50,316 nucleotides of DNA from a virus (lineage: Duplodnaviria; Caudoviricetes). Below are positions 3,194-20,797 of this stretch, in pieces; within the stretch, counting starts at the first letter, position 1; every line of letters starts with the position of its first letter. The stretch lies in the IMG/VR virus record IMGVR_UViG_3300032257_000019, positions 1 through 50,316 of that record; one strand, given 5' to 3'. A program made the translations under genes and the position numbers. The notes beneath the pieces are model-generated. The model saw only the letters and a list, made by a program, of their open reading frames with translations, did not search any database and had not been told where the DNA came from.

Positions 3194-3230
3194 ATTAAAA
3201 ATACCTTCTTATTGTTAATTCTAATATCTT

Positions 3231-3437
3231 TCAGTTGCATTCCCAGGTCATTTTACTATTGGGTAGTCTTTCATTAATCTCATCAATTATTAGATCTTGG
3301 TGGTTCTTACTATGAGAGCAATATTCTTTCTCCCCTTTAATAAATACACCTTTAGCCTTTTCATCAAACTTAGTCTCTATTACAGAGCAACTAGCTAAGA
3401 ATAGGATACAACCTGCTAATAATACTTTAATCATCAC
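3231..3437 (-). CDS. Small lipoprotein (possible o-spanin-like or envelope protein)
   Basis: Signal peptide with lipobox LASC and two additional cysteines. Confidence 0.6.
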   Translation of the reverse strand: MMIKVLLAGCILFLASCSVIETKFDEKAKGVFIKGEKEYCSHSKNHQDLIIDEINERLPNSKMTWECN

Positions 3438-4199: not shown

Positions 4200-4227
4200 T
4201 TAGACAACAAAGTGTCGGTAAAAGTTC
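4200..4227 (-). promoter_or_regulatory. sigmaE/ECF-type promoter P1, GAACTT-N16-GTCTAA, upstream of terS
   Basis: Minus strand reads TGAAATTAAATT-GAACTT-TTACCGACACTTTGTT-GTCTAA. One of four intergenic copies. Confidence 0.75.
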
Positions 4228-4251
4228 AATTTAATTTCAATATATTTACAA

Positions 4252-4488
4252 CTATTTTATTAAACCCTTATCTATCAGAGACTTAGTGCTTATGTCATCA
4301 AGTCCTCTTTCTTCAATAACTTTAGCCATTTCAATTATTCTAGAAACAGGATAAAAGTCATTATTATTCATACTCATACCAAGATAAGGTTCTTCTAATA
4401 ATAGTCCTCGAGAGTCTCTATGCATCATCCTATAGGTTACTACTATATCTTTTTCGTATGAAGAGTACTGGGGTTCTATACTACTCAT
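4252..4488 (-). CDS. Hypothetical protein
   Basis: 78-aa ORF with a strong GAGGAGG RBS. Confidence 0.7.
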   Translation of the reverse strand: MSSIEPQYSSYEKDIVVTYRMMHRDSRGLLLEEPYLGMSMNNNDFYPVSRIIEMAKVIEERGLDDISTKSLIDKGLIK

Positions 4489-4626
4489 TTTCTTCCTCCT
4501 CTCTTGTAGAAGCCCTCTGGAGCCTCTCTACGGCGTTCTCTCTACTTTTAATACATTGGTACTTATATTTGTCTTGCGCCTCTCTGAGAGCTTCCTGTGA
4601 AGCCTGAGGGCATCTCTCTCTACCTA

Positions 4627-5040
4627 TTAGATCTTTTTCCATTGGTCTATCACCCATTTGGTTAGTTTCTTAAGAAAAGAAGTATTATCCAATTGTTTAG
4701 GTAACTTATTCAATTTATCCTTTTCTACCTCTATCTGATCTTTTATCAGTACTATATGTCTTTTATCCTGTACTGCTGTACCTGCATGCTTTGTTATTGG
4801 AGTTAGTGACTGCCTATCTGCATCCTCAAATAGAACCATACCCCTAGGTGATATAGCTGTGCATAGTACCTCATATACGTACCTCTCTCCTCTAGGGTCT
4901 TGGAACCCCCTACTGTAGTCCTCTATCTCAGATTTACTGTATATTATAAGATCTGGTCTATCCCCCTGATAGTTAATGCCTCTAAGTTGTCCTCCAAAGG
5001 GGACATTTCTAATCTGTCTACCATACCACTGCACTATCAT
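4627..5040 (-). CDS. Protein containing a degenerate terminase ATPase (Walker B region) fragment
   Basis: QLRGINYQGDRPDLIIYSKSEIED...YEVLCTAISPRGMV aligns with this genome's TerL KIRGMLWNGTRPDLIVCDDMENDD...VEALMPCLSDNGIV. It has a GAGG RBS. Confidence 0.65.
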   Translation of the reverse strand: MIVQWYGRQIRNVPFGGQLRGINYQGDRPDLIIYSKSEIEDYSRGFQDPRGERYVYEVLCTAISPRGMVLFEDADRQSLTPITKHAGTAVQDKRHIVLIKDQIEVEKDKLNKLPKQLDNTSFLKKLTKWVIDQWKKI

Positions 5041-5149
5041 CGGTATTCCCTCTTAACCTGTAAACCCTCTGTCTCTATTGGCCTACCCAGGAGTATTCTA
5101 AATAGATCTTTATACGTCAAATAAACTATATCACTACTAAATGCATTAT

Positions 5150-5470
5150 GTTTTACTCTCATCGGGATATCTCCTCATCAATCTATGTCTATAAGTTAAG
5201 GTTAGCACATTTTTCTGTACTCTGTCAAAAAGAGGAATACTCTAGTACGCTGTAATAAGTGTATGTATGTACTTAAAGTATGAGTAGCTCCTTAGGAATA
5301 CTCCTTGGGAGTACTCTGACTGGTCGCTATTCCAGTGGAGTAGTATCAGGTTATTACTCTTGTTTGTATTTACTCTGAAGTAGGAATAATACCTGATGAG
5401 TACTCTCATACTTCTGATTACTTACACACTGAGTAACTATCAGGATTACTCCTAAGCATAACTCTTTTAG
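5150..5470. repeat. Non-coding cluster of GAGTA/TACTC pentamers and short palindromes
   Basis: About a dozen irregularly spaced copies (GAGTACTC twice, GGAATACTC twice, ATTACTC twice, GAGTAGCTC, GAGTAACT) and no long ORF. Confidence 0.65.
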
Positions 5471-5473
5471 TAG

Positions 5474-5501
5474 TTAGACAACAGAATGTCCGTAAAAGTT
5501 C
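5474..5501 (-). promoter_or_regulatory. sigmaE/ECF-type promoter P2, (G)GAACTT-N16-GTCTAA, at the head of the leftward (late) arm
   Basis: Minus strand reads G-GAACTT-TTACGGACATTCTGTT-GTCTAA-CTACTAAAAGAG; near-duplicate of P1 over about 50 bp. Confidence 0.75.
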
Positions 5502-6015
5502 CATTTATTTTCCATATATTTTATAAATAATTATAGATAAGGCTCTAACTGGTTGATATTTGCATTTAGTCTAGGTTAGTGGTTACTAACATGGGAAGTG
5601 TTACTATGCATTTTCATGTTACTATTCCAAATATATATAAATGGGAGTACCCAGGAAGTACTTGTGAAATTGCCAAAATATAATTGGGAGTGTACATACC
5701 AAATGAGCCCTCCAGAGTTTTTCCCCCCTCCCCCCTTCACTAGAAACAGTACCCTACCCCCCCTTTTATAATTATTCCAAGTCTAGCACGATAGGGGCAT
5801 GATCGAAGGAGATAGGCGCAAATACTCCAATAAGAAAGGCACGAGATTTCCGGAGGAGCGGCCCCCCCTATATACATCAATGACTTACCACTATCATTAC
5901 CTTATACTATGCCTAGTGGATACCCCCTCATGAACCACAAGAGGCATATTCTAGAATAAAACATGATATACATCACAGTTTAATGGATTATTTGCATTTA
6001 ATTTACAATGAGCCC

Positions 6016-6045
6016 TTGAATTATTCAGATACTAGCCGCTATAAT
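6016..6045 (+). promoter_or_regulatory. Putative sigma70 early promoter, TTGAAT-N18-TATAAT
   Basis: Perfect -10, 4/6 match at -35, AT-rich upstream; 45 bp before the first early gene. Confidence 0.55.
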
Positions 6046-6090
6046 TACCACATAGAGACACAAACAGAGACTAAACAAGGAGACACACTA

Positions 6091-6243
6091 ATGATTAACA
6101 CAATGGGCACAAAATCACACGCCACACAAGAGCAAGCTTTTAACCATATGGAAGGACTTATTAATGATAATTATCATGTTACTAGCTGTCCTGATATGGA
6201 AAACAAAGGTAATACCCTAGTAATTTATTGGATGGAGGCATAA
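6091..6243 (+). CDS. First early gene, hypothetical protein (50 aa)
   Basis: ORF track 5983-6243. The start is moved to ATG 6091, after an AAGGAG RBS. Confidence 0.65.
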   Translation: MINTMGTKSHATQEQAFNHMEGLINDNYHVTSCPDMENKGNTLVIYWMEA

Positions 6244-6570
6244 TACAATGGATAATCAAATTAGAAGAGTAAACAATGGCTATATACTGACTAATTATAG
6301 AGGAGAAATGATAAAATACCCTACTCTTGTTAGTGCAATGTTTCAATTATTCTTAAATGGTAAAACATATGGATCAGATATTGACTTATGTGAGGTAAAT
6401 TTCTAATGAAAGGTTTATATAGTGATATGTACGGGAATGAATTTAATTGCTTAATATTGGCTTGTTCCCTTAATGGTAATCAATACATGATACTAGATAT
6501 TGAAGAGAATTCTATAGGCTGGTGTTCATGTCACTTGGTAGATGATAACTATTAATAGGAGTAATAAATA

Positions 6571-6777
6571 ATGACTATATTAACTAAATATACCATACAC
6601 CTATATACTAAAAGTGGGCATAGTAAGAAAGTCGAAGTATTTGCGAAAAGTCTATTAAATGCCTGTGATGTTGCAAAATGGAATAATAAAGGCTCGTCTG
6701 TATCAATGGCATGGCATAATTACCCCATTGAAACAAGAGAAGTTAAAAACCTAATTGAATTAAATAGGAGTAAATAG
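6571..6777 (+). CDS. Early hypothetical protein
   Basis: ORF with AGGAG RBS. Confidence 0.7.
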   Translation: MTILTKYTIHLYTKSGHSKKVEVFAKSLLNACDVAKWNNKGSSVSMAWHNYPIETREVKNLIELNRSK

Positions 6778-6856
6778 TCATGTTATTTTATTGGGATATG
6801 ATGTTGATATGTTTTGTATTGGCTTGCATATGGCTAGCGATTGGAGGTGAGGCGTA

Positions 6857-7045
6857 ATGAAACAACTAACAGACAATGAGAAGGATCAACTTGGTTTAAT
6901 ATGGGGGAATATTCTTGACTTAAATTACGAGGGGGACGATTGGGTGATAGATAACGGGCGAAAGGTCAGTAATATAGCCTTATACTATATATTACACGAC
7001 TTAATATATAATAGATATGAGCGAGTAAGGGGGAAACAAAAGTGA
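6857..7045 (+). CDS. Early hypothetical protein
   Basis: ORF with GGAGG RBS. Confidence 0.65.
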   Translation: MKQLTDNEKDQLGLIWGNILDLNYEGDDWVIDNGRKVSNIALYYILHDLIYNRYERVRGKQK

Positions 7046-7209
7046 ATAAACAAACTAATCATATAAACATACAGCTGAATAAGATACAAGCTAGATTACT
7101 AGCAGGTATCATTCAAGGGTATTACAAGAAACTACCCGAGGAAGGGTTAACTTATCAAGATAAGATACTCAGAAACATAGCTAACAGACTAATAAAGGAG
7201 TAATATATC

Positions 7210-7605
7210 ATGAACGATATTAAAGACAATTCAAACGAAAAGTGGGTCGAAGTGATACAAGAGTGTATTGCCGATAAGTGGACCCCAGAGAGTAAAAAGG
7301 AAGTCCCAGATGTTGATAAGTTAATGACTAGATGTACTGCTTGTCACCATTCGACACGCCTATGTACTAGCAGAGAAAACCCATATGTCGATTGTACTAA
7401 CTGTCCCATAGCAGAGTATACAGGAAAATCTCATTGTGATGGTACTCCTTACGAATCTTTAAGTGAGATATGGACCGAGGGTTTGTGTGAAGATGAAGAC
7501 AACCTAACAGGGGGTAACTTAGAAGAGATACACGATATTATTAGACAGGAGATATCCTTCCTGAATAAGGTTAAAAACTATATTCTTAATGATAGAAAGG
7601 TGTAA
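7210..7605 (+). CDS. Cys-rich, probably metal-binding early protein
   Basis: Pattern CTAC...C...CTNCP...C-DGTPY; AAGGAG RBS. Confidence 0.7.
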   Translation: MNDIKDNSNEKWVEVIQECIADKWTPESKKEVPDVDKLMTRCTACHHSTRLCTSRENPYVDCTNCPIAEYTGKSHCDGTPYESLSEIWTEGLCEDEDNLTGGNLEEIHDIIRQEISFLNKVKNYILNDRKV

Positions 7606-7611
7606 TATATT

Positions 7612-7845
7612 ATGAATACTTATAATACATATGATCACATAGTAGCAGGATATAGTATACCCAGTGGAGATATTGAAGTAAAAGAACAGGCTTTGATTGA
7701 TGTTATCAATGGCATTGTTTGGAGTGAGTTACACCAACAAGAAAATACAATTAAGTATGCCGAATCTGTTCTAGATCATGATGGTATATCGGCTTATTAT
7801 GATTATGGTGCTGATTACTATTTTTTTACTGATAGCGAGGAGTAA
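7612..7845 (+). CDS. Acidic early hypothetical protein
   Basis: ORF in a tightly packed operon. Confidence 0.7.
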   Translation: MNTYNTYDHIVAGYSIPSGDIEVKEQALIDVINGIVWSELHQQENTIKYAESVLDHDGISAYYDYGADYYFFTDSEE

Positions 7846-7850
7846 ACAAC

Positions 7851-8324
7851 ATGTTAACATTTAACCATTTAGAAAACTTTATACTTAATATTGCGCCGTT
7901 GCATTATCCTTGTAAAGAGGCTCCCAATACATTCGAGGAGCTTAAACAAGTTAATAAGGATAAAGTATTGCTATTACCTGTATTCTCTGGCGGGTGTGCC
8001 AATACTATTTGGAGTAATCCAAAAGTTAACCATGCTTTAAGAGCTTGGCATGATGATATACACCTAGAATATGATTATGATTTTTCGTTATATGGTGAGA
8101 TTAGTACAGCTAGAAAACATATTGAAGTGCTAAGAAAAAACCATCTAGGGGTATTCTCCAATCTCTTTTGGTGTGAAATAGTGGGACAAGTATTATATTA
8201 TAATAAGCATAAAAAATATGTATCGAATCAAAGGGAATTTGTATTGCTTTTACTTTGCCATGGTGTTAAAGTGGGTGACATTGGAGTGATTAACAATATA
8301 TTAGATAATATTGGAGAGGTTTAA
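7851..8324 (+). CDS. Conserved phage protein with a RAWHDDIH motif (possible zincin-like metal site)
   Basis: N-x-x-L-R-A-W-H-D-x-x-H...F...GE...H...E-x-x-G-Q pattern; function unknown. Confidence 0.6.
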   Translation: MLTFNHLENFILNIAPLHYPCKEAPNTFEELKQVNKDKVLLLPVFSGGCANTIWSNPKVNHALRAWHDDIHLEYDYDFSLYGEISTARKHIEVLRKNHLGVFSNLFWCEIVGQVLYYNKHKKYVSNQREFVLLLLCHGVKVGDIGVINNILDNIGEV

Positions 8325-8327
8325 GCC

Positions 8328-8954
8328 ATGTTAAAAGAACAAGCCATTAATTTTGTTGGTACTTTATCGAATACAAGTAAAATGCCTGGAAAATCAATAT
8401 CATTACCTGCTCAAGAGTGCAAGACAGGCTCAAAACTTAGAAAGGTAAAAGGCAGTGTTTGTGAAAAATGCTACGCCATGAAAGGATGTTATAGTTGGGG
8501 GAATGTACAAAAAGCTTTATATAATAGGCTTGATAAGGTAAACAATACAAGCTCTAGTGATTGGGTATCTGGTATGGTTAAACTAATTAATAAACAAAAG
8601 TATTTTAGATGGCATGACTCTGGGGATATCCAAAGCATTCAACATCTAGATAACATTTGTAAGGTTGTATTGTTAACACCTAATACACTTCATTGGTTGC
8701 CCACTAAGGAAGTTAAGATGGTAAGAGACTATTTAAAATCAAATGAGATACCAGACAATTTAAATATACGGGTATCATCCCCTATGATAGATCAAAAGCC
8801 TATTAAGATGCATAAAAGTGTTAATACTAGCACTGTTCACACTGATAAGAGTTATGGTTTTGAGTGTCCAGCAGGGGGACAAGGGGGAGCTTGTCTAGAT
8901 TGTCGCTCTTGTTGGAATAAAGATATTAAGAATGTGTCTTATAAGTTGCATTAA
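8328..8954 (+). CDS. GP88-family Cys-rich phage protein
   Basis: SKMP, C...CEKCYAMKG, FRWHDSGD, WLPTKE, and C-terminal CPA...CLDCRSCW. Confidence 0.75.
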   Translation: MLKEQAINFVGTLSNTSKMPGKSISLPAQECKTGSKLRKVKGSVCEKCYAMKGCYSWGNVQKALYNRLDKVNNTSSSDWVSGMVKLINKQKYFRWHDSGDIQSIQHLDNICKVVLLTPNTLHWLPTKEVKMVRDYLKSNEIPDNLNIRVSSPMIDQKPIKMHKSVNTSTVHTDKSYGFECPAGGQGGACLDCRSCWNKDIKNVSYKLH

Positions 8955-8965
8955 GGTTTTTTACT

Positions 8966-9433
8966 ATGAATAAATTACAATTATCACTAGCCTGTATTGC
9001 TTCAATCGCTATTAATTCAGCGGATGCCTTAGCAGATACCAGTATTTTAGTACATGGGGTATCAAAGCATGTTAATAGTCCTGCTTGTATGCTATATGGT
9101 AGCGATTTTAAACAATGCCAATACAATGAGCTTAATTATGGTTTGGGCGTTATAGAGCGCAATACAGGGGATAAGTGGTATTATATGAGTGGAGCTTATA
9201 AAAATTCTTTTGGTAGATTATCGACTTATATAGGGGGAGGGTATCAGATTAGTAAGTATTCTGGTATAAAAGGAGCGTTTATTACTGGATATCCACAATT
9301 AAAAGTAGTTCCCATGGTTGCACCATACTTGACAATTCCAACTTTTATTGATAAATTTACTATTAGTTTAGATATCCCCTTTATGCCTGGAACTACCCAA
9401 GCCTTGACGATGTCTATACAATATAAGTTATAA
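8966..9433 (+). CDS. PagP-like small outer-membrane beta-barrel protein
   Basis: Sec signal peptide (ADALA/D); SKH...YNELNYGLG...AYKNSF resembles PagP H...YNERPWGGG...FKDSW; amphipathic strands; C-terminus IQYKL. Confidence 0.7.
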   Translation: MNKLQLSLACIASIAINSADALADTSILVHGVSKHVNSPACMLYGSDFKQCQYNELNYGLGVIERNTGDKWYYMSGAYKNSFGRLSTYIGGGYQISKYSGIKGAFITGYPQLKVVPMVAPYLTIPTFIDKFTISLDIPFMPGTTQALTMSIQYKL

Positions 9434-9445
9434 GGAGTCTTTTTA

Positions 9446-9649
9446 ATGATTACAGGAGATTGTATAGTAAAGAGGAAAGAGTATGGACATGAAAAATGGC
9501 CTAAAAGGTTTCACACTATACCTCGGGTCGGTGATTATATCATGTCCAGTTGTGGAGTACAATTAAGGGTTATTAAAGTTACTCATACTACTCTTAAGAG
9601 GTATAAAATATATTCCACACCCCAAGTTGTACTAGAATTAACAGTATAG
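9446..9649 (+). CDS. Hypothetical protein with a PRVGD motif
   Basis: AAGGAG RBS; resembles 20572-20760. Confidence 0.7.
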   Translation: MITGDCIVKRKEYGHEKWPKRFHTIPRVGDYIMSSCGVQLRVIKVTHTTLKRYKIYSTPQVVLELTV

Positions 9650-9670
9650 ATAAAAGAGGAGCAATACATT

Positions 9671-10093
9671 ATGAAAGCATTAGACAGGATACCCATGGTT
9701 AGTAAGTGGTATGATTACAACGAATTAAGTAATAAGGTGATATGTGAGAGAGGTTTCACTTTTTCAGCTTTAGACGGATACATTGAAGAGGGTTATGCAG
9801 TAGCATTGGAAAAATCCAGAGAAAAGATTATTCCTAAAAGTGAGTTAAACGGTAGGGCTAGTATTGTAAAAGTATTACAAGACTATGCAGAAGCTTTTAA
9901 CAAAGAGCTAAGCAATCCAGAAGTTTGTTTTGGAGCCTGGGTAACTGATAAAGGAGATTTATATCTTGATGTCGTGGTTGTAGTGGATGATTTAAGTGAA
10001 GCCAAGCTAATAGCTAGTCATTTCGATCAAATAGCAGTATACCACCTAAACATGAAAAAGGTATTATTGATCGGAGGGGGTGAAGGGCTATGA
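9671..10093 (+). CDS. Conserved phage early protein (GAW...LYLD...F-D-Q-I-A-V); possibly a distant SAM-lyase-like fold
   Basis: GAGGAG RBS. The motif order loosely parallels phage SAM lyases; the function is unverified. Confidence 0.5.
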   Translation: MKALDRIPMVSKWYDYNELSNKVICERGFTFSALDGYIEEGYAVALEKSREKIIPKSELNGRASIVKVLQDYAEAFNKELSNPEVCFGAWVTDKGDLYLDVVVVVDDLSEAKLIASHFDQIAVYHLNMKKVLLIGGGEGL

Positions 10094-11522
10094 GTATAAA
10101 CAACTATGAAGTAATCCCTGTACCTGTTGATATAGACATGGCAAAAACCCTATATTACAAGGGAATAGCGATTACTCTGCAATCTTGGTATACAAGCCAT
10201 AAACCATTAATCATACATTATGACAGTGTAACTAAGATAGCTTTCACTAAACTATTATTTGGGTATTCTGTGTTAAACGATATAGGTATTGACCATATTA
10301 ATCTATCTATAGATGTAAAAGGAGAAAAACCCTAATGAAATACGCTCCTATCTTAACTTGGCAAATGATACCCACTACACTGTTAAATGATATGAAGGAT
10401 TTATTATTTATAGGAGATACAACCGATTATGATACCACTATCATATTAAAACAGGTTAATAGCCTGGAATATGATATGATGATCATGGAACTATCCTCCT
10501 TTGTCCATGGTCTGATAGGGTATATTCCGTTGTTTGTTATAATTGTGGATGAGGAGTCTGATTTTTATGATAAACCAGAAGAAGAGCTTAATTGATGTTG
10601 TTGTATTGTGGTTGATTATAATCGCTCTTATGGCTGGTGGTATGTTTATGGTTGTTGATTTTATAACACCTGAAGTATCACTATTAAACAAAATTCAAAC
10701 CGATATGGAGATTTATAGACTATGAGAAACAAAAAGGTAAAGAGTTTTAATAAAGTTAAGCAGTTTCTACCGAAGGATATGCCTTATAGGTTGTATGAGG
10801 TAAAGCAGCATGCTCCTCGTTCATTCCTGGTAACTGATAAAGAGGGTAATACACAAACTATGCTGCAGCCTATGTTACAAGTTAGATTGCATGAGAGATG
10901 TATCCGTAAGAAGAAAAAGAAGTTTAAAGTAGAGTTAAGAAAGGGGTAGTAATATGAATGAGCAAATGTTTAATTTAATGGCAGAAGCTGTTGTATTGTC
11001 CTACTTTATAGGGATGCTTATGGGGGGTATTGTTGCAGCACATGTTATGATTAAATCCAGTAAAAAGGATAATGATAATGAATAAGTATACTATGGCTGA
11101 ACTACAAAGAAAAGCAAAGGAAGCTATTAAAGCAAGAGATACCAAGGATGATTTCAGATACAATATACTGATTGAAGGGATTTGTTTATTAACTGGTATG
11201 CATCCTAAAGTAGCAGACAGGCGCATCGAAAGGCTAGCAAAAGGAGATAAAGATGCTGCGTAAAAATGAAACTGTACTAGAAAACTTCTTACTGGATTGT
11301 GAAATGTATGATGTGGAGCAGTGGAAGGAGGATGTTAGATTTGGTCTAACAGATGATATCCATACCATGCAAAAACGAACCTATACGTGTAATACTTGTC
11401 ATAAAGTTGTAGAGGAAAAAGTATTTGAAGTTATTAGTGTGGGTAGTAAGGTGAAAACCAAATGTAATGGGTGTAGAACTAAAGCGAGAGGAGCTACCCG
11501 AAGGAGATTACATGGCTACTAG
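10090..11522 (+). other. Run of small early hypothetical ORFs (10090-10335, 10335-10595, about 10543-10725 membrane peptide, 10722-10949, 11072-11263, 11253-11522 CxxC...CxxC zinc ribbon)
   Basis: Abutting or overlapping + strand ORFs with RBSs; no recognisable families. Confidence 0.65.
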
Positions 11523-11997
11523 ATATCTTAAACGGGTAGGTCCATCCAACTATCGTCTTACGTTTGGTAAGTTGTATGCGTTTGATGGTAGGCGTATAAC
11601 GGACGATGAAGGGGGGAGTATGAAGCCTAGTTATGGTAATAGTGGATACTGGCTGGAGTTGTATATAGATGAATCGCCTATTATACATCAAGGGGATATA
11701 ATATATGCTAAGGACGATAGAGGACGCACTATTACCCAGGATATTGTAAGTGGTAATCACAACATTAAAGAGGAGCAACAAGAAATGAGTAATGCAAATA
11801 TTGAGATGAGAGTATATATTCAAGGTAAATTAGGTAATGATTTATCCGATAAAGAGATATTCCAGGTAATTAAGGAACTAGAAAAAGAACTTGGTTATCT
11901 TGAATCCCTGAATGTAGACTCAGATAAGGTCAATGAAGCTATAGTTGGGATTAATGGGGATATACATGAATTAGTTAAATATGTAGACAATCGGTAA
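11512..11997 (+). CDS. Two-domain hypothetical protein with a coiled-coil C-terminal domain
   Basis: ORF track 11467-11997. ATG 11512 follows AAGGAG, and a second in-frame GAGGAG...ATG lies at 11785. Confidence 0.65.
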   Translation: MATRYLKRVGPSNYRLTFGKLYAFDGRRITDDEGGSMKPSYGNSGYWLELYIDESPIIHQGDIIYAKDDRGRTITQDIVSGNHNIKEEQQEMSNANIEMRVYIQGKLGNDLSDKEIFQVIKELEKELGYLESLNVDSDKVNEAIVGINGDIHELVKYVDNR

Positions 11998-12012
11998 TAA
12001 GGGGAGTCATGT

Positions 12013-12889: not shown

Positions 12890-12897
12890 AATATATT

Positions 12898-12924
12898 GAA
12901 CTTTGACCAAATGTTGAGGTCTAA
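12898..12924 (+). promoter_or_regulatory. sigmaE/ECF-type promoter P3, GAACTT-N15-GTCTAA, upstream of the ThyX/replication genes
   Basis: TT-GAACTT-TGACCAAATGTTGAG-GTCTAA-CTACTAAAAGAG; the 18 nt GTCTAACTACTAAAAGAG are identical to P2. Confidence 0.7.
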
Positions 12925-13020
12925 CTACTAAAAGAGCTTTCCTAGAGTAGCTAATTAGTAATCTAATACTTCTAACATGTACAGATACACACTAATGAAT
13001 AATCTAAAGGAGTATTCCTA

Positions 13021-13206
13021 ATGATGTCGTATAGAGATAAGACATTTTGTGGTAGTGATTGTGAAAATGAGTCTTGTCATAGATTTATTACAGAGTCAGT
13101 ATGGGATAATTCAGAGGAGTTAGGGTTACCCTTAGCTCAAGTTAATTTTAGCTCAGAATGTGATGAATATATTAAACCAAAGGAGAAACAAGATGAAAAT
13201 AACTAG
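13021..13206 (+). CDS. Small four-Cys protein
   Basis: YRDKTFC...C...CHR...C pattern; AAGGAG RBS. Confidence 0.7.
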   Translation: MMSYRDKTFCGSDCENESCHRFITESVWDNSEELGLPLAQVNFSSECDEYIKPKEKQDENN

Positions 13207-13408
13207 AATAGAGAGTGAGGCCCCTAAGACATTTGAGCCTATCACTGTACAAATTGTTATAGAGTCTCGAGAGGAGGTCTTCGCTTTAAGAGAGGCTAGT
13301 GCTAATCTGTGTATAGGTACAGTGAACAAGGAGGTATCTACCTGGGAGAGGTCGCGGGTAATAGTTGGCCTTCTGGAGATAATCTATAGTACTATCAATG
13401 AGGGGTAA
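13193..13408 (+). CDS. Hypothetical protein, paralogue of 15665-15913
   Basis: Start moved to ATG 13193 after AAGGAG; FEPITVQIVIESREE motif. Confidence 0.7.
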   Translation: MKITRIESEAPKTFEPITVQIVIESREEVFALREASANLCIGTVNKEVSTWERSRVIVGLLEIIYSTINEG

Positions 13409-13416
13409 TAATAATA

Positions 13417-14301
13417 ATGTATATCTCAGAGGTAGAAGGTAAAGGGGGTATATCTGCTAAGGTTGTAGCTGATAGTATAGCTAATGAGGTTAGATTAGTT
13501 ACTATGGAACTACGATACCCTAGATTTATACATTCAGAGTTCATGACTCATAGAGTATTTAGTCGTAATGCTAGTAGCTCTAGGGCTATCCCTATTGATA
13601 AGATGATTAATCAAGTTATGTGGGATACAGCTAGACCAGTTGAATGGGGCCTGAATCAACCTGGGATGCAAGCTGAGGACGTTATAACAGATAGGGATAA
13701 GGTCAAGGGTTATGAGTACGATTGGATATCAGCAGCAAGAGAAGCAGCTTTCTATGCTGGTGTTATGAATGGCCAAGGGCTACATAAGCAAATAGTTAAT
13801 AGAATACTTGAACCTTATCAGTTTATCAAGGTCATAGTTACTAGTACTGAATGGGATAACTTCTTTAACTTAAGATTAGATAAGGCAGCTCAACCAGAGA
13901 TACAGGAGTTAGCTAATTGTATGAAGTCTGCCATGGATATAAGTAATCCTGAGGAGCTAAATGAGAATCAATATCATTTACCCTACTTGTCAAGGGATAC
14001 TAAGTATGCTGATAAGGTGGAGTACGGAGATGATCTAATCAAAATGAGTGTAGCTAGATGTGCAAGAGTATCCTATTTAAATCATGATAATAGTGAACCA
14101 AATGTGGATAAAGATGTCAAACTACATGATATGTTATTAAATATGGGTCATATGTCTCCTTTTGAGCACATTGCTACACCTATGACTGATGAGATAGCTT
14201 GTAATGGGGATTGGCCCAAGGGATATACTCACATGGATAACCATGGGGTCATGTGGTCGGGTAACTTCAAAGAGTGGATACAGTTGAGACAAACATTATA
14301 G
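13417..14301 (+). CDS. thyX: FAD-dependent thymidylate synthase
   Basis: HSEFMTHRVFSRNASSSRAIP variant of the ThyX signature, plus HKQIVNR, LRLDKAAQPEI and HMSPFEH. Confidence 0.88.
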   Translation: MYISEVEGKGGISAKVVADSIANEVRLVTMELRYPRFIHSEFMTHRVFSRNASSSRAIPIDKMINQVMWDTARPVEWGLNQPGMQAEDVITDRDKVKGYEYDWISAAREAAFYAGVMNGQGLHKQIVNRILEPYQFIKVIVTSTEWDNFFNLRLDKAAQPEIQELANCMKSAMDISNPEELNENQYHLPYLSRDTKYADKVEYGDDLIKMSVARCARVSYLNHDNSEPNVDKDVKLHDMLLNMGHMSPFEHIATPMTDEIACNGDWPKGYTHMDNHGVMWSGNFKEWIQLRQTL

Positions 14302-14313
14302 GAGAGATGAGAG

Positions 14314-14637
14314 ATGGAACAAGGTATAAAGAAAGTAGCAATATTTCGTAGTGTAGAGTATGGGTATGAGAATATTCAAGAAGACTCTTTTGAAAGCGTT
14401 GATAATTATTATCGTTTATCTGAGTATGAGGAGGTATATTTCACCCCCATCCCTGAAAGAGATGTTGTTATCTCTGAGGTAAATGCTCTTAAGGATCAAA
14501 AGCAAACGATCCAAGCAGAAACACAGGTTAAAGTTGATCGGATAGATAAAAAGATTAATACCCTGCTAGGTATTGAACATAACCCAGGCTCAGCCATTGA
14601 TGGTGAATGGGATGATGATGATGATATTCCATTCTAG
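14314..14637 (+). CDS. Coiled-coil protein ending in the bacterial SSB C-terminal tip (DDDIPF)
   Basis: C-terminus EWDDDDDIPF; the body is short and helical rather than an OB fold. Confidence 0.7.
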   Translation: MEQGIKKVAIFRSVEYGYENIQEDSFESVDNYYRLSEYEEVYFTPIPERDVVISEVNALKDQKQTIQAETQVKVDRIDKKINTLLGIEHNPGSAIDGEWDDDDDIPF

Positions 14638-14643
14638 GAGGAG

Positions 14644-14904
14644 ATGTATATGATTAGTACTATCAGTAAAGAAGAATTAGCAGACCTTGATAGATTGGTC
14701 TGGGATGCTGGCCTGGATGAGGTCCAGGAGATAGTGGATGAGTTGAACTGGATACCTGTCTCTAGGAGACAAGCTATCTATCTTATTAAGTATAAGAGTG
14801 GATGTACAAAAGGAATAGCTGAGGTAGTACATGAGCTTTATTTACAGCTACGTGTGAGATTAATTAAGCTATCCCTCCAAGAGAAGGAGGAGTCCAATGA
14901 ATGA
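14644..14904 (+). CDS. Small protein resembling ECF sigma factor region 4 (tentative)
   Basis: AGGAGG RBS; IPVSRRQAIYL...IAEVV...LRVRL follows the spacing of sigmaE region 4 as I recall it. Confidence 0.4.
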   Translation: MYMISTISKEELADLDRLVWDAGLDEVQEIVDELNWIPVSRRQAIYLIKYKSGCTKGIAEVVHELYLQLRVRLIKLSLQEKEESNE

Positions 14905-15490
14905 AGGTGTAAGAGTATTAGCAGCTATATCAGCTCCTCGGTTAGGATTTACCGATAATATGCGTAGTATGATGTTACTCCAGGAATTAGGTATCCCTTC
15001 TGTAATGTGTACAGGGGCGTACTGGGATAGATCCTTACAGAAATGTTTTGATTATGCAGTAGAGCAAGGATTTGATTATGTATTAACTGTAGATTATGAT
15101 TGTATATTCAGTAAACAGGATGTTATGACCTTATTGAATGAGGCTGTCAACAGTGAGTTATCTGCAATAGCTCCCTTAATGGCAGGTAGAGGTAATCTAG
15201 GCCAGTTGCATACAGTCTTAGGTAATGTACCCGATACACAGATAATACCTGTAGAGTCAGCTCACTTCGGTTTAACTGTTATTAGTACAGATGCATTGGA
15301 TGATGTAAGGGACTGCTGGGTAGGGGGTAATATAGATGTAGATCCTGACGTACAGTTCTGGGAAGATCTAAAGGAGGAAGGTCACCAGGCATATGTACAT
15401 CAAGGGGTAGGGGTAGGTCATCTAGAACTTATGATTAAATGGCCTGGAGGTACTTATGGAACACTCGATGAGTGGTACAGTAATGAATAA
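14897..15490 (+). CDS. GT-A fold glycosyltransferase (GT2-like)
   Basis: DYVLTVDYD (DxD motif), HFGLTVIS, DPDVQFW, VGHLE. Confidence 0.75.
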   Translation: MNEGVRVLAAISAPRLGFTDNMRSMMLLQELGIPSVMCTGAYWDRSLQKCFDYAVEQGFDYVLTVDYDCIFSKQDVMTLLNEAVNSELSAIAPLMAGRGNLGQLHTVLGNVPDTQIIPVESAHFGLTVISTDALDDVRDCWVGGNIDVDPDVQFWEDLKEEGHQAYVHQGVGVGHLELMIKWPGGTYGTLDEWYSNE

Positions 15491-15664
15491 ACCACAGGGC
15501 AATGCTGATTTACTAATACCAGCACAGGTTCATCTTGTAGTCATCACTAAATATGAGATGGACGCTTATATCTCCTTAATCGATAAGGAAGGGGGAAAGC
15601 GACTAGCTGAAGATCTAGTAAAACTAAAGGTAATATTAACTAAGTTAGGACAAGGTGAGAATAT

Positions 15665-15913
15665 ATGAAAGTAGAAACAGAGGAACAAAAGGCTGAATTT
15701 AAACCTGTATCAATTACATTTACAATGGAAACAGAAGATGATTTACGGGCATTGTGGCATATCTTTAATATCCCAGACTCTTTTATCTTAGGGACTGTTG
15801 AGTCTACACGTGTACCTACTAGGCCCTCAGTGTATCGCCCAAGAGATGTAAATATGTATGGCCTATGGGCACCCGTAGATGCCTTGGCTAAACAGGCAGG
15901 ATTGAGAAAATGA
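15665..15913 (+). CDS. Hypothetical protein, paralogue of 13193-13408
   Basis: FKPVSITFTMETEDD motif. Confidence 0.7.
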   Translation: MKVETEEQKAEFKPVSITFTMETEDDLRALWHIFNIPDSFILGTVESTRVPTRPSVYRPRDVNMYGLWAPVDALAKQAGLRK

Positions 15914-15928
15914 GGGGAGAAATAGCAA

Positions 15929-16528
15929 ATGTTTGAAAAGTTTCCAAAATTAGGTAGACTAAGTAAAGGTATTACTATAACTGAGAAGTTAGATGGGACT
16001 AACGCACAATTACATGTGATTGAACACTCCTTATCCCCAGCATCTCATATAGTAGATCAACGTATACATGTATCAGAGTGCGGTAGACTTAGCCTCTTTG
16101 CAGGTAGTCGTAACAGGTATGTATATCTTGATAAGGATAATTATGGATTTGCTAATTGGGCCAAGGCGCATGCAGATGACTTGATTGAGTTCTTAGGGGA
16201 AGGTCGTCATTACGGTGAGTGGTGGGGAGCTGGTGTACAACGTAGGTATGATAGAGAAGAAAAGATATTCTCCTTATTCAATACTAACCGTTGGGGGCCA
16301 GGAAGACAAGAGTTACCTGACTACTTAAGCGTAGTCCCAGTACTATATCAAGGACCATTTGATACCACAGCTATCGATGATACTATGATGGCATTAAAAG
16401 AGAGCGGAAGTGTAGCAGCTCCTGGTTTTATGAATCCAGAGGGTATTGTTGTATTTGATCATGCTACAGGTACTATGTTTAAGAAGACATATGAATATGA
16501 TAAAGGTAAGTGGACAGGAGAGAAATAA
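15929..16528 (+). CDS. RNA ligase, Rnl2-like nucleotidyltransferase domain only
   Basis: Motif I TEKLDGTN, SRNR, motif III YGEWWG, motif IV EGIVV, motif V FKK. Confidence 0.85.
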   Translation: MFEKFPKLGRLSKGITITEKLDGTNAQLHVIEHSLSPASHIVDQRIHVSECGRLSLFAGSRNRYVYLDKDNYGFANWAKAHADDLIEFLGEGRHYGEWWGAGVQRRYDREEKIFSLFNTNRWGPGRQELPDYLSVVPVLYQGPFDTTAIDDTMMALKESGSVAAPGFMNPEGIVVFDHATGTMFKKTYEYDKGKWTGEK

Positions 16529-16530
16529 TT

Positions 16531-16791
16531 ATGAGTGGATTAACAATACCAGCGATAGTTTTAATGATAACTATGATAGGTCCCTCGGGTGAGTTAGGAC
16601 AGGCAGTAGCATTCCCTGAGAGCATGAAGAAATGCCATTATATTGCTAAGGTTATGATTAATGATGAAAAGGAAAGTATAGCAGCAGAAGATAACCTACG
16701 AAAAGAGGGAAAGGGTGTAGAGCCTCGTACTAAATTACAGGCGATATCTTGTGTTAAAGCAGAGGTGCCTATTAACGGACAGATTATGTAA
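16531..16791 (+). CDS. Hypothetical protein with a hydrophobic N-terminus and two Cys
   Basis: ORF track 16510-16791; ATG 16531 follows GGAG. Confidence 0.6.
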   Translation: MSGLTIPAIVLMITMIGPSGELGQAVAFPESMKKCHYIAKVMINDEKESIAAEDNLRKEGKGVEPRTKLQAISCVKAEVPINGQIM

Positions 16792-18461
16792 TGAGTAGAA
16801 TCATAGGGGATACTGCTTGTCCTGGGTGCAGGGAGCAAGGTAGAGATAAGAATGGGGATCACCTCATGCTATATGAGGATGGAGGGTCCTATTGCAATAG
16901 GTGTGGGTTTACGGAGAGACCTGGGGCCCATGGGAGAGGGCCGGAGGATGAGGGAGTATCCTCTCCCCCTAAAAGAATATTAAAGAGGAGTGTTATGGAA
17001 CTTAACGAGATCCAAGAACTACCAATAGCTGCTCTTAAGTCAAGAGGTATCAGCGAGAAGGTAGCTAAACATTATGGGATACATACTGAATATGATACCT
17101 CAACCAGGGAAGAGGTTGCCCATTACTACCCTATAACTAAGAGCGGTAAGATCATAGCTTATCGTAAGAGGAGACTACCTAAGGAATTCTGTACAGAAGG
17201 AGAGAGTATTAAAGGGCAGAAGGTTGATATGTTTGGCCAAGCTCAGTGCCAAGTAGGAGGAGGTAAACTAGTTATTGTCGAGGGACAAGATGATATGCTA
17301 GCTGCTTGCCAGATGTTATGGGAGAGATATCCTAAGTTTACTCCTAATGTCGTATCCTTGGTCACAGGGGCCAATACTAAAAGTGTAGCGGATAATCTAA
17401 GCTTTATAAATTCATATAAAGAAGTTATATTGTGCTTGGATATGGATGATGCAGGTAAAAAGGCTACTAATGATATATACAAGATGATTACTTCTAAAGT
17501 ACTTCTCATGTCTATACCTGAGAAAGATCCTAATGAAGTACTTAAGAAAGGAAAGAGTGCTGCATTTGTATCTGCATTCTTTAATGCTGTACCTTATGTT
17601 CCAGATGGTATCTTGTCTGTAGATGATGTATATGATGAAGCTATTGAGATGCCTCAATGGGGTCGTAAGTGGCCATGGCCTAGCCTTGATGCATTAACCT
17701 ATGGTAGAAGAGATGGAGAAGGTATCTTTGTAGGAGCTGCAGCTAAGGCAGGTAAGACTTTATGGTTATCTCAGATGGTTCAATCTATCGTAGAGAATGA
17801 AGGTAAGAAGGTATTTCTATGTAAGTTTGAACAAAATCCTGCACAGACTGTCAAAGAAGTAGCAGGTAAGATAGCTCATAAACAGTTCCATATACCTGGA
17901 GGGGACTTTACACAAGAGGATTTAGCTGAAGCTGTAGAAAAGACAAAGGGTAAATTACTTATATTTGATGCATCATTTACAGATGTAGGTCAAAGCAATT
18001 TATGGGATAGGCTCAAACCAGCTATAAGGCATGCTGTATTGGTTGAAGGTGTTAAGGATGTATTCATTGATCCTATTACTCAATTGACAGATGGTATGTC
18101 AGCTAGTGATACTGAAACAGAACTTAGAAGGTTCTCTAATGAGATCCAAGGGATGTCTAAGGATCTAGGTTTCTTCTACTATTGCTTCTGTCATTTAAAG
18201 GCACCTGAGGGATCTAAGACACATGAAGAGGGCGCTAAGGTTAAGGTAGCTCAGTTCAGGGGGTCTAGGGCTATGGCTGAGAAGACTAAGTTTATGTTAG
18301 GTATTGAGAGGGATCAGTATGCTTCTGATCCTGCCATAAGGAATACAAGTAAGTTTCATCTACTCCTTAACAGTAGTTTTGGTAAGTCAGGGTCCTTTGA
18401 AGTTAAGTTTGATGAAGATACTGGTGATTATTTGGAAGAACCTAGAAGAGTGGGGTATTGA
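16791..18461 (+). CDS. DNA primase-helicase (T7 gp4-like)
   Basis: Zinc finger CPGC...CNRC, TOPRIM motifs VEGQDD and DMDDAG, helicase Walker A GAAAKAGKT, FIDP, HLK and FRGS. Confidence 0.95.
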   Translation: MSRIIGDTACPGCREQGRDKNGDHLMLYEDGGSYCNRCGFTERPGAHGRGPEDEGVSSPPKRILKRSVMELNEIQELPIAALKSRGISEKVAKHYGIHTEYDTSTREEVAHYYPITKSGKIIAYRKRRLPKEFCTEGESIKGQKVDMFGQAQCQVGGGKLVIVEGQDDMLAACQMLWERYPKFTPNVVSLVTGANTKSVADNLSFINSYKEVILCLDMDDAGKKATNDIYKMITSKVLLMSIPEKDPNEVLKKGKSAAFVSAFFNAVPYVPDGILSVDDVYDEAIEMPQWGRKWPWPSLDALTYGRRDGEGIFVGAAAKAGKTLWLSQMVQSIVENEGKKVFLCKFEQNPAQTVKEVAGKIAHKQFHIPGGDFTQEDLAEAVEKTKGKLLIFDASFTDVGQSNLWDRLKPAIRHAVLVEGVKDVFIDPITQLTDGMSASDTETELRRFSNEIQGMSKDLGFFYYCFCHLKAPEGSKTHEEGAKVKVAQFRGSRAMAEKTKFMLGIERDQYASDPAIRNTSKFHLLLNSSFGKSGSFEVKFDEDTGDYLEEPRRVGY

Positions 18462-18462
18462 T

Positions 18463-18663
18463 ATGGATGAGATCTTTGTTAAAAAAGGGGATATGGTTAA
18501 GTGTTACTTTCCCAGTGGTAAGGTTGTATTTGGTAAGGTGTTGAGTCTCCCTAGTAATGCCCATGGCCCTACTGTTCTTCAAACCTACTATGAGGGGAAA
18601 GAGGATCTTATATGCTATGTCTTTAATTGTGAACATATGTATATAATATCTAGAGGGGACTAA
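18463..18663 (+). CDS. Hypothetical SH3-like small protein
   Basis: MDEIFVKKGDMVKC... fills the gap between helicase and polymerase. Confidence 0.6.
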   Translation: MDEIFVKKGDMVKCYFPSGKVVFGKVLSLPSNAHGPTVLQTYYEGKEDLICYVFNCEHMYIISRGD

Positions 18664-18664
18664 T

Positions 18665-20572
18665 ATGCTAATCTGTGACTGTGAGAGTACTGGGTTTAAA
18701 TATGAAAGTACTAAGATATGGGTTATCTGTGCTTATGATACTGAGACTAGACGCTACTATATGTCCTTCGATGAAAGTGTGTACGATGAGTTTGAGATAT
18801 ATCAACTAATCCTGGGGGAAGAAATTACTTGTAATATCCTACAAAGTCATGAGCAGATGGTTGAGTTATTCAGTAGTAAGACAGTATGCTTCCATAACTA
18901 CTTTCAACATGATAAACCTTTAATTAAGAAGTTTTATCCAGAGTTCTCCCCCGCTGGTGAAGAGGATAGTTACATATTATCTCAGCTATATAATCCAGAT
19001 AGGGGATTACATGGTCTAGCTGCATGGGGAGAGAGATTTGGACTGCCCAAACCTGCACATGAGGAATGGGATAGGTTCTCTCCAGAGATGTTACATAGAG
19101 TTATCGAGGATGTTAAGATAAATGTATTAACCTGGGAGGAACTTCAGAAGGAGAAGGGATACTGGGAGAAGAAAGGTAATAGCTGGGATCTTGCTACTAA
19201 GATTGAATATGGAATAGCTAATGTCCAAGGTGAGCAGGAGATGCATGGTGTTCTGGTTGATGAAGAGGAAGCATACTCTTTAGCAGATGAGATATTCTTA
19301 GAGATACAGAAGTTAGATGAGTACTTGGATAGTGAGATGCCCTTGAGGGTTATCCAGGAGAAGAGAGCTACATATGAGGATGAACCATTCACTAAAGCTG
19401 GTAAGTTAAAATCTCATGTATTAAAGTGGTTTGATGGAGATGAATTAGTAGAGGGTCCCTTTAGTAGGGTATCTTTTGAGAAGACTAACCTTAATGCTCC
19501 TTCTCAGATTAAGGACTTCTTATTGTCTCAAGGATGGAAACCAATTGAATGGACTAAACCTACTAATCTACACCCTAATGGTAGTCCTAAGATGACTATT
19601 AAGAATAGTTATGGGGAGACAGTCCCTTGTCCTTCCTTAATGGAACTTAATAGTGGCTTAGGTCTAGCTATCGGTAAGAGATCTGTATTAAAACATAGAG
19701 CTGGTATACTATTTGGAGTAAGGAAGAAGGATAGTAAGCTCACTGGTGTTATTAATATCATGCGGGATGACGGTAGGATTGAAGCAGGAGCTGTAACTAA
19801 TGCTACTAATACTGGTCGTATGGCACATAGAGGGTTAGTTAATGTACCTAAACCTAAGGATAAGGACCTATGGCCAAGTAATAGGCAGATAAGATCTCTC
19901 TTTATTGTACCAGATGATAAGATAATGATGGGTGTTGATGCAGATGGATTAGAAGCTAGGATGGAAGCTCATGCTTGTCTACCATATACAGGGGGACAGG
20001 CTTATGCTTATGAACTATTGGAAGGGGATGTGCATGCTAACAATGCTATCATATTTGGTACAGATAGAGATGGAGCTAAGGCCCCTAAGTATGCTTTAAC
20101 CTATGGCTGTCAAGCTGAGAGATTAGCACATACATTAGGGTGCCCTATAGGTAAAGCCAGAGAGTTATTCAATGACTTCTGGAGCGGTAATACAGCCTTA
20201 TCTGAATTTAAGGAAGCTATAACTAAGTTCTGGAAAGATACAGGAGGTAAGTATATCATAGGTATAGATGGAAGACGTATCAGTACTAGGTCTGAGCATT
20301 CATTGGTTAATGCATATTTCCAGAGTACAGGTAGTATTGTGGTTAAGGTAGCAGCAATGTACCTTAATAAATGGGTTAAGCTTAAATGTCTTGACGCTCA
20401 ACAAATTATTATATACCATGATGAGCTTGAGTATGAAGTAAATCCGAGGGACCAGGATAGGGTGAATTATCTTGCTATAAAGGCATTTGAAGAGGCGGGT
20501 AAGTTCCTCAAGATAAGAGTACCAGTAACAGGTTCTCCTAAATGGGGTAGAAACTGGGAGGCTGTTCACTAA
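18665..20572 (+). CDS. polA: DNA polymerase family A (T7-like) with a 3'-5' exonuclease domain
   Basis: ExoI DCES, ExoII HN...HD, TGRMAH, motif A DADGLE, motif B RDGAKAPKYALTYG, motif C HDE. Confidence 0.95.
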   Translation: MLICDCESTGFKYESTKIWVICAYDTETRRYYMSFDESVYDEFEIYQLILGEEITCNILQSHEQMVELFSSKTVCFHNYFQHDKPLIKKFYPEFSPAGEEDSYILSQLYNPDRGLHGLAAWGERFGLPKPAHEEWDRFSPEMLHRVIEDVKINVLTWEELQKEKGYWEKKGNSWDLATKIEYGIANVQGEQEMHGVLVDEEEAYSLADEIFLEIQKLDEYLDSEMPLRVIQEKRATYEDEPFTKAGKLKSHVLKWFDGDELVEGPFSRVSFEKTNLNAPSQIKDFLLSQGWKPIEWTKPTNLHPNGSPKMTIKNSYGETVPCPSLMELNSGLGLAIGKRSVLKHRAGILFGVRKKDSKLTGVINIMRDDGRIEAGAVTNATNTGRMAHRGLVNVPKPKDKDLWPSNRQIRSLFIVPDDKIMMGVDADGLEARMEAHACLPYTGGQAYAYELLEGDVHANNAIIFGTDRDGAKAPKYALTYGCQAERLAHTLGCPIGKARELFNDFWSGNTALSEFKEAITKFWKDTGGKYIIGIDGRRISTRSEHSLVNAYFQSTGSIVVKVAAMYLNKWVKLKCLDAQQIIIYHDELEYEVNPRDQDRVNYLAIKAFEEAGKFLKIRVPVTGSPKWGRNWEAVH

Positions 20573-20760
20573 TGGACAACATAGCAATATACATATTCAT
20601 AGATGGGGCCCAGTACGGGCTAAGACACTGGAAGGTGGTGCCAAGGGTTAATGATACAATCTTTTTAGAGGGACCTAAGGAGGGGGAGTACAAGGTAGAT
20701 CGTGTAGCTTGGTGTGGGACTCATACCCCCCATGCAATATTGGAGGTTATAAAAGTATGA
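20572..20760 (+). CDS. Hypothetical protein with a PRVND motif
   Basis: Translationally coupled to the polymerase; resembles 9446-9649. Confidence 0.65.
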   Translation: MDNIAIYIFIDGAQYGLRHWKVVPRVNDTIFLEGPKEGEYKVDRVAWCGTHTPHAILEVIKV

Positions 20761-20769
20761 AATTAAATT

Positions 20770-20797
20770 GAACTTTAATATAGACGTTGGTGTCTAA
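20770..20797 (+). promoter_or_regulatory. sigmaE/ECF-type promoter P4, GAACTT-N16-GTCTAA, upstream of the SSB-like gene
   Basis: TGAAATTAAATT-GAACTT-TAATATAGACGTTGGT-GTCTAA; the 19 nt TGAAATTAAATTGAACTTT are identical to P1. Confidence 0.75.

Follow-up and report, generated by a model that had tools for sequence, protein, structure and literature searches.

The window analysed here is the whole 50,316-nucleotide stretch of IMG/VR virus record IMGVR_UViG_3300032257_000019 (Duplodnaviria; Caudoviricetes), which is rated 100% complete, and our subject is a set of four promoter-like sites, P1 to P4, found between its positions 4200 and 20797. All four are exact matches to a single two-box motif, and each lies in a gap between open reading frames (ORFs), directed toward the next block of ORFs. 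P1 (4200-4227, minus strand) occupies an 84-nucleotide gap between the ORFs 4252-4488 and 3427-4167 and heads the gene in the position of the small terminase (3427-4167, minus strand), behind which comes the whole leftward virion operon by way of the contig junction. P2 (5474-5501, minus strand) reads into roughly 430 nucleotides without a convincing gene. P3 (12898-12924, plus strand), whose spacer is one base shorter, sits in the gap 12890-13020, upstream of an operon of nucleotide-metabolism and replication genes (13021-20760, plus strand). P4 (20770-20797, plus strand) is separated by one small ORF from the gene for the family A DNA polymerase (PolA) and heads the operon 20830-28264 (plus strand).

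The pattern GAACTT-N{15,18}-TCNAA has exactly four matches in the window, compared with a mean of 0.60 in dinucleotide shuffles, and a count of four was reached in 1 of 100 shuffles. The sites share an A/T-rich stretch, T(T/G)GAACTTT, 14 or 15 variable bases and GTCTAAC; the variable bases are partly alike among the four and near-identical between P1 and P2. The motif ranks first in an unbiased count of 6-mer/gap/6-mer combinations over the non-coding DNA of the window, and all four sites fall within the roughly 8% of the genome not covered by ORFs in a crude call. A weaker fifth site (GGAACTATC..GGTCTGATA, 10488-10515, plus strand) lies inside an early ORF, carries two mismatches, and scores 20 with a position weight matrix (PWM) that gives P1 to P4 scores of 28-34. 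Its variant wording recurs in two related phage genomes, G003 and G005 (G000 is the window genome, and the other G numbers are IMG/VR records).

Both boxes resemble those of promoters read by sigmaE. Escherichia coli sigmaE promoters are described as having a -35 element GGAACTTTT, a -10 element (T/C)GGTCAAAA, a spacer of 15-19 nucleotides in which 16 is strongly favoured, UP-like, A/T-rich DNA on the upstream side, and transcription starting at a purine 5-6 nucleotides past the -10 (Rhodius et al., 2006, PMC1312014), while the neisserial sigmaE -10 is given as CGTCTAA (PMC2893595). In the window, the GGAACTT of the -35 is present as TTGAACTTT in three sites and as TGGAACTTT in one. The TCAAA-like -10 after a G takes the form GTCTAAC in all four, and GGTCAAA and TGTCAAA occur in related phages, which also carry TTGTCAAA. 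Spacers measure 17, 17, 16 and 17 nucleotides in P1 to P4, and 16 nucleotides in each of the nine listed sites of relatives. A/T-rich sequences (AAATTAAATT, AAAATAAATG, AAAATATATT) lie directly 5' of the -35. By this comparison the phage sites fit every sequence feature described for the E. coli sigmaE promoters. Promoters of the sigmaE regulon of E. coli and related bacteria share with the phage sites the -35, the -10 after a G, A/T-rich DNA upstream and a spacer of about 16 nucleotides (17 at P1, P2 and P4), whereas the phage sites head replication and virion operons instead of envelope-repair genes.

Relatives were gathered by a primase-helicase search of IMG/VR, which gave six contigs of 46-50 kb at 48-62% identity (G001-G006), and by an exact-motif scan of IMG/VR, which returned at least 113 stretches and served only to find G008 and G009; among the best 80 of these at least 113 stretches, 79 have a single match and one, L091, has two. 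A capsid search returned a family of 391 contigs. The gene order common to the relatives comprises terminase, portal-position gene, capsid, tail genes, primase-helicase, PolA and exonuclease, and the early genes around the sites have no detectable similarity between the window genome and its promoter-bearing relatives. With one mismatch allowed, six distant relatives (G008, G003, G004, G005, G023 and G024) bear sites at matching positions in this gene order. At the P4 position, directly after PolA, sites occur in G008 (2202-2228), G003 (28389-28415) and G004 (9501-9527), often with GGTCAAA. At the P1 position, upstream of the small-terminase-position gene, they occur in G008 (34505-34531), G003 (42589-42615), G004 (24792-24818), G005 (46839-46865) and G024 (1335-1361). 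P2-like sites lie further upstream in G003, G004 and G005, and sites at the P3 position, upstream of the replication module, are found in G008 (45964-45990) and G023 (31374-31400). Overall, sites are present in seven of the 28 related records examined, 20 of which were searched less sensitively than the first eight.

Pattern and PWM scans of three further relatives, G001, G006 and G002, found no sigmaE-type site. In these genomes (loci L021, L024 and L026), G001 has TTGCAC-17-TATAAT (approximately 35130-35165) directly after PolA, G006 has TTGACA-17-TGgTATAAT (25829-25857) directly after PolA, and G002 has TTGCAA-17-TGgTATAAT (17967-17995) some 200-300 nucleotides upstream of the approximate start of the small-terminase-position gene. 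These near-consensus sigma70 promoters, located within the corresponding gaps or close to them, mark the gaps as promoter sites, and this apparent exchange of promoter class is the strongest argument that the sites in the window are themselves promoters. In trees of the large terminase, the capsid and the portal-position gene, the three sigma70-type genomes form one clade each time; in the primase, PolA and concatenated trees they do not. A count of promoter-class switches on the tree was dropped, since one switch suffices in three of the trees and the other three disagree. The initial annotation had proposed P1 to P4 as sigmaE-type promoters, and the proposal is strengthened by the excess of exact sites over expectation, their intergenic placement, their agreement with the consensus and their conservation in relatives.

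What, then, reads these sites? Six-frame hidden Markov model (HMM) searches of the window genome found no Sigma70_r2 and no Sigma70_r4, and for Sigma70_r4_2 gave only a sub-threshold match (E 0.018) to the helix-turn-helix of the small-terminase-position protein. Searches of G008, G003, G004, G005 and G009 for Sigma70_r2 and Sigma70_r4_2 gave nothing above cut-off; in the control for the sigma searches, matches were found in 11-14 of 14 reference genomes. No sigma gene of the phiEco32 gp36 or T4 gp55 type emerged from the HMM and Pfam scans, and there was no RNA polymerase among the 50 window ORFs scanned with Pfam. At E<0.05, the early ORFs of the window are without relatives in the other genomes that bear the promoters, and a gene-by-gene comparison revealed no protein exclusive to the promoter-bearing genomes, save the metallophosphoesterase encoded behind P4. 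Because neither a phage RNA polymerase nor a recognizable phage sigma was found, host core polymerase carrying a host sigmaE-type sigma is the most likely reader. A diverged phage sigma is less favoured, since the capsids of the motif-bearing phages are 51-62% identical and an RpoE wording kept across such phages should leave the sigma recognizable.

Our preferred reading is that P1 to P4 are middle and late phage promoters of the RpoE/AlgU (sigmaE) class of extracytoplasmic function (ECF) promoters, read by a sigmaE-type sigma of the host, and we regard this as on balance probable. In such a programme the early block (5983-12889) would be expressed first. The sigmaE-holoenzyme would then fire P3 for the nucleotide and replication genes, P4 for further DNA-metabolism genes, P2 for a non-coding stretch that is perhaps an origin, and P1 for the terminase and a virion operon of about 26 kb. 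Active sigmaE could come from basal activity, from envelope damage caused by the infection, or from some early protein.

The initial annotation had pointed to two phage genes as the source of free sigmaE, the first encoding an outer-membrane barrel (8966-9433, plus strand; 155 residues, ending in ..SIQYKL). The N-terminus of this protein reads as a signal peptide, where the model places a helix at residues 3-16. An AlphaFold model, built on a 59-sequence alignment, has eight strands after the N-terminal helix at a mean predicted local distance difference test (pLDDT) score of 89.8, and its top Foldseek matches are Ail, PagP (3gp6, template modelling score 0.60), OmpX and the OmpA barrel. As modelled, the product would be a secreted, eight-stranded outer-membrane barrel of the kind that PagP is. 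It matches phrog_3600, 'PagP' (E 2.9e-15), and has itself no Pfam match (including PF07017) and no NCBIfam match. An exhaustive HMMER search gave 116 representatives at E<=0.001, of which 57, together with two other proteins, make up the alignment; most rows shorter than approximately 145 residues or partial were omitted. Among the 59 aligned sequences, six match Pfam PagP (best 3.6e-8) and four match OMP_b-brl. Residues H35, G59, G76 and N80 are invariant in this family and S33 and S81 nearly so, such that an S-x-H and an N-S pair are invariant or nearly so; the catalytic residues of E. coli PagP are a His, an Asp and a Ser. The phage protein is like PagP, the outer-membrane lipid A palmitoyltransferase, in its signal peptide, its eight-stranded barrel and its phrog_3600 match, whereas it misses the Pfam PagP family, is 155 residues long, and has a catalytic equivalence that is putative.

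A gene-by-gene comparison with seven relatives found the barrel gene in none of them, and the protein has no relative in IMG/VR contigs. Searched on its own, the sequence had no match in cellular genome contigs; a three-sequence alignment gave eight partial matches (L251-L258) at 29-38% identity. Candidatus Obscuribacterales, Cyanobacteriota or unclassified metagenome-assembled genomes (MAGs) account for six, and the other two come from an unclassified bacterial isolate bin and a Flavobacterium MAG. The barrel gene is an accessory outer-membrane gene, or 'moron', particular to this phage. Early expression, as the initial annotation had it, is plausible given that the gene lies upstream of P3, and the barrel itself stands. 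Its transcription from a sigma70 promoter found no support: we found no sigma70 promoter for the block, and sigma70-like matches between 4000 and 14000 are no commoner than chance (37, compared with 44.6 in shuffles). Any outer-membrane protein that is over-made may raise sigmaE activity. The barrel may contribute incidentally in this way, and it bears no mark of a dedicated trigger.

The second gene is an ORFan of 86 residues (14644-14904, plus strand) within the P3 operon, which had been described as a stand-alone protein resembling sigma region 4. The ORF and its place downstream of P3 are as described; the resemblance was not detected. In a collection of 5.8 billion proteins, the sole member found is the protein itself. 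Pfam at E<=10 gave no sigma family, only CarD_C (0.022, below cut-off) and DUF6301; PHROGs and NCBIfam gave no match, and the six-frame Sigma70_r4 and Sigma70_r4_2 searches do not touch 14644-14904. Its single-sequence fold is helical and of low confidence (pLDDT 52.4), with uninformative Atlas neighbours. By eye, the stretch RRQAIYLIKYKSGCTKGIAEVV recalls the wording of regions 4.1-4.2, and no test supports the likeness. An identity as a CarD C-terminal domain was considered and rejected (the Pfam match reaches 15 bits against a cut-off of 23, and the PDB search E 0.45). In the PhyR-NepR partner switch, PhyR is a full sigma-like domain joined to a receiver domain. What is shared with that system is only the idea of a sigma-like domain titrating an anti-sigma, whereas the 86-residue ORFan has no detectable sigma region.

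Together these genes were held to form a circuit in which the YKL end of the early barrel activates DegS/AlgW, sigmaE is released, and the 86-residue protein, as a region 4 mimic, titrates the anti-sigma and so sets up positive feedback. The barrel does appear to be real, secreted and probably early, the 86-residue gene does lie behind P3, and mislocalised outer-membrane proteins are described as activating DegS and AlgW through their C-termini (PMC8359247; PMC8545111). However, both proteases have pockets described as accommodating one large aromatic side chain at position 0 and another at -2, such as YQF and WVF provide (PMC8545111), whereas YKL offers Tyr at -2 and Leu at 0. Moreover, the last residue of the barrel family is F in 19 of 59 sequences, L in 17 and W in 3, and because an F, L or W end is the norm of this PagP-like family, YKL marks a barrel and not a trigger. 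The decoy has neither a sigma match nor relatives. The initial annotation had named as fatal to the idea a finding that relatives keep the promoters while lacking both genes and any equivalent trigger. In five complete or near-complete relatives that do keep the promoters, G008, G003, G004 and G005 among them, a gene-by-gene comparison found neither gene, which leaves only the clause on an equivalent trigger. On that clause, a crude signal-peptide screen of G003, G004, G005, G001, G006 and G002 revealed no further barrel-like secreted protein, and all that passed it in those six genomes were small lipoprotein-like ORFs and others that overlap the primase gene; in G008 a 226-residue ORF (39226-39906, ending in ..KEYFL) passed it. 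We consider the circuit very improbable, and neither the barrel nor the 86-residue ORFan is a demonstrated part of one.

Other explanations of the sites were considered. In T4, MotA and AsiA redirect the host sigma70-holoenzyme, and an activator and co-activator of this kind, with GAACTT as the activator site, would account for expression here without free sigmaE; many early ORFs are unassigned. However, the (G)TCTAA or TCAAA box has neither the A2 nor the T6 expected in a sigma70 -10, sigmaE is matched in the two boxes and in the distance between them, and no activator is conserved among the promoter-bearing genomes, so this arrangement seems improbable. That the sites are repeats of another kind, bound for instance by a protein of replication or packaging, would suit P2, which precedes non-coding, repeat-bearing DNA, but the sites stand at operon heads in the orientation of the genes downstream, sister phages have textbook sigma70 promoters in or near the same gaps, and two boxes around a spacer of variable sequence have the form of a promoter; we judge this extremely improbable. 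An early-made phage sigma too diverged for profiles, in the manner of gp36 of the phiEco32-like phages, is unlikely, though phage sigmas with promoters of their own are established in the work on those phages (PMC4331800), most early ORFs of the window belong to no family, and only two proteins were folded. An exact RpoE-type -35 and -10 at the proper spacing should go with recognizable regions 2 and 4, and none appeared in the six-frame searches of the window genome and four promoter-bearing relatives; nor is any early protein common to the promoter-bearing genomes at the threshold given above. Furthermore, the phiEco32/7-11 sigma is described as recognizing one TAATGTATA-type box, in place of the two boxes of an ECF motif (PMC4331800).

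Several points nevertheless count against a host sigmaE as the reader. The reading presumes a host with an RpoE-type sigma, and the only cellular relatives of the barrel that turned up, in Obscuribacterales and other MAGs, are too weak to name a host. Early phage proteins diverge fast, such that a cryptic sigma could escape HMMs, and a sigma that is normally sequestered is a risky dependence for a phage in which no releasing factor was found. The window yielded no sigma70-type promoter for the early genes, and the reading does not account for how the programme starts. The PWM gave 0-1 hits in shuffled genomes at the same threshold, but it was built from 13 of the sites that it scores, and only the additional sites are new evidence. 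The 20 further long relatives were scanned by the exact pattern only; three have any match, and two of their four matches (G023 and G024) lie at positions of the window sites. The literature searched, which was not exhaustive, contained no account of a lytic phage that runs on host sigmaE; activation of cell-wall stress by a Pf4 variant is reported in one abstract (PMC7693463).

The presumed early block (5983-12889, plus strand) consists of approximately 23 small ORFs, none with a match in the promoter-bearing relatives. Its only proteins with relatives among the compared phages are a GP88-family protein (8328-8954, plus strand; PF17338, E 2.5e-27), matched in the sigma70-type G002, and a protein of 157 residues (7851-8324, plus strand; phrog_33646), matched in the sigma70-type G006. 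In the gap from P2 to the first early ORF (5700-5880, plus strand) we observed C-rich runs (CCCCCCTCCCCCC and CCCCCCC), each followed by TATAAT-like or TATATAC words, and found no sigma70-type -35 at the right distance from the TATAAT-like words. One early ORFan of 68 residues (6571-6777, plus strand), absent from relatives, has a sub-threshold likeness to the T7 Gp2 type and is a lead only. It matches phrog_1307 at E 0.0083 and PF16857 at E 0.051 (14 bits, below the cut-off of 27), and has an Atlas score of 0.78 for the Gp2 type, all three pointers resting on likeness to one family; a PDB search gives ankyrin repeats instead. If it were Gp2-like, one might speculate that it silences the sigma70-holoenzyme and leaves the sigmaE-holoenzyme to the phage.

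The stretch downstream of P2 (5041-5473, minus strand) contains only a doubtful ORF of 55 residues and three AGAGTAYTC repeats. In G003, G004 and G005, a conserved hairpin (L031 617-690, L033 2916-2990 and L037 7912-7986), with three compensatory pairs among the three sequences, comes after the P2-like promoter, as do A/T-rich repeats. The P2 stretch is possibly an origin region activated by transcription.

The remainder of the genome is that of a virulent-looking phage. Because 127 bases are repeated at the two ends of the record, the unique genome comes to about 50.2 kb, and the assembly is probably a circular one. Within the window G+C ranges from 34 to 44%, and the GC skew changes sign near 6 kb and near 28 kb, the places where gene direction changes. 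The operon behind P3 encodes, by Pfam, a ThyX-like protein (13417-14301), an RNA ligase (15929-16528), a T7-type primase-helicase (16791-18461) and PolA (18665-20572), all on the plus strand. Behind P4 lie a replication-initiation-like gene (20830-21519), a 5'-3' exonuclease (21984-23021; Pfam), the metallophosphoesterase (24299-24994; Pfam, and phrog_221 at E 1e-42) and small ORFs, also on the plus strand. The metallophosphoesterase is 52-56% identical in the promoter-bearing G008, G003 and G005, whereas the sigma70-type G001, G006 and G002 lack it. Its degree of conservation equals that of the capsid, and the pattern may only reflect kinship.

The late operon behind P1 begins with 696-4167 (minus strand) and continues leftward across the contig junction to approximately 28570. 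Its first gene, 3427-4167, has a helix-turn-helix motif and is a predicted small terminase, judged by its position and its conservation beside the large terminase in all relatives. The large terminase (696-2219), the capsid protein (45235-46143) and a SASA-type esterase (41585-42976) were assigned by Pfam, all on the minus strand. Downstream of the large terminase, the portal-position gene runs in frame across the junction (1-717 and 48813-50316, minus strand) and encodes approximately 697 residues, of which the 452-residue ORF 48813-50171 (minus strand) is only the C-terminal part. The sole transfer RNA (tRNA) gene of the window, tRNA-Asn (2555-2630), lies within this operon. In two relatives tRNA genes stand directly behind the terminase-proximal sites: those for Pro, Leu and Val in G003 (42667-42923; L031 2667-2923) and that for Ser in G005 (46521-46607; L037 6521-6607).

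Among cultured phages, a megablast of 4200-20797 gave no match, and the closest PolA match is at 31% identity. Vibrio phage 1.253.O (Zobellviridae) shares the replication module and has weak large-terminase similarity; it has no motif site at zero mismatches, and its four matches at one mismatch look like chance.

A different arrangement was observed in G009, an unrelated, high-GC record of 120,838 bases (61% in L168). It carries nine near-identical GAACTTTTCACCGCGGTGATCCGTCTAA elements on one strand (22410-30188; locus L168 7411-15189), flanked by a CACCGCGGTG inverted repeat. An ATG follows 6 nucleotides past TCTAA in eight of the nine and 8 nucleotides past it in the other, each opening an ORF of 61-138 residues. 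These elements look like ECF-type promoters giving leaderless mRNAs, in a record without a Sigma70_r2 match, which suggests that the strategy may have arisen more than once.

Known phage reprogramming takes three routes: a polymerase of the phage's own, a sigma of its own, or a remodelled sigma70-holoenzyme. In T7, Gp2 shuts off the host polymerase, another enzyme takes over, and the primary origin lies behind promoters. The window resembles T7 in its primase-helicase, PolA and exonuclease, its sub-threshold Gp2-like ORF, and a promoter, P2, that reads into non-coding DNA; unlike T7, it has no T7-type RNA polymerase, and the Gp2 likeness is under every cut-off and absent from relatives. The phages phiEco32 and 7-11 are described as pairing a phage sigma for middle and late genes with an inhibitor of host sigma70 transcription (PMC4331800). 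The switch from early to middle and late genes at non-sigma70 promoters, with no phage RNA polymerase, is common to them and to the window. In contrast to the sigma that they encode and its single TAATGTATA-like box, the window has no detectable sigma gene and a cellular sigmaE consensus.

Temporal control by a change of sigma is known, and the borrowed host ECF sigma is apparently the new element here. It is possible, and we propose tentatively, that a virulent phage lineage has handed its whole post-early programme, comprising replication, a possible origin, tRNAs and the virion, to the envelope-stress sigma of its host. The seven promoter-bearing genomes and their three sigma70-type sisters form a comparison set that makes the idea directly testable. 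If it is true, a lytic programme that depends on an ECF stress sigma of the host and does without a phage sigma would add a fourth route of reprogramming, and would offer compact stress-responsive promoters. Phage success would be tied to the state of the host envelope, with alleles of rpoE, rseA, degS and rseP predicted as determinants of host range or resistance. An infection-provoked stress response that the cell may not be able to switch off would, in that case, be linked to phage development and perhaps protect it.

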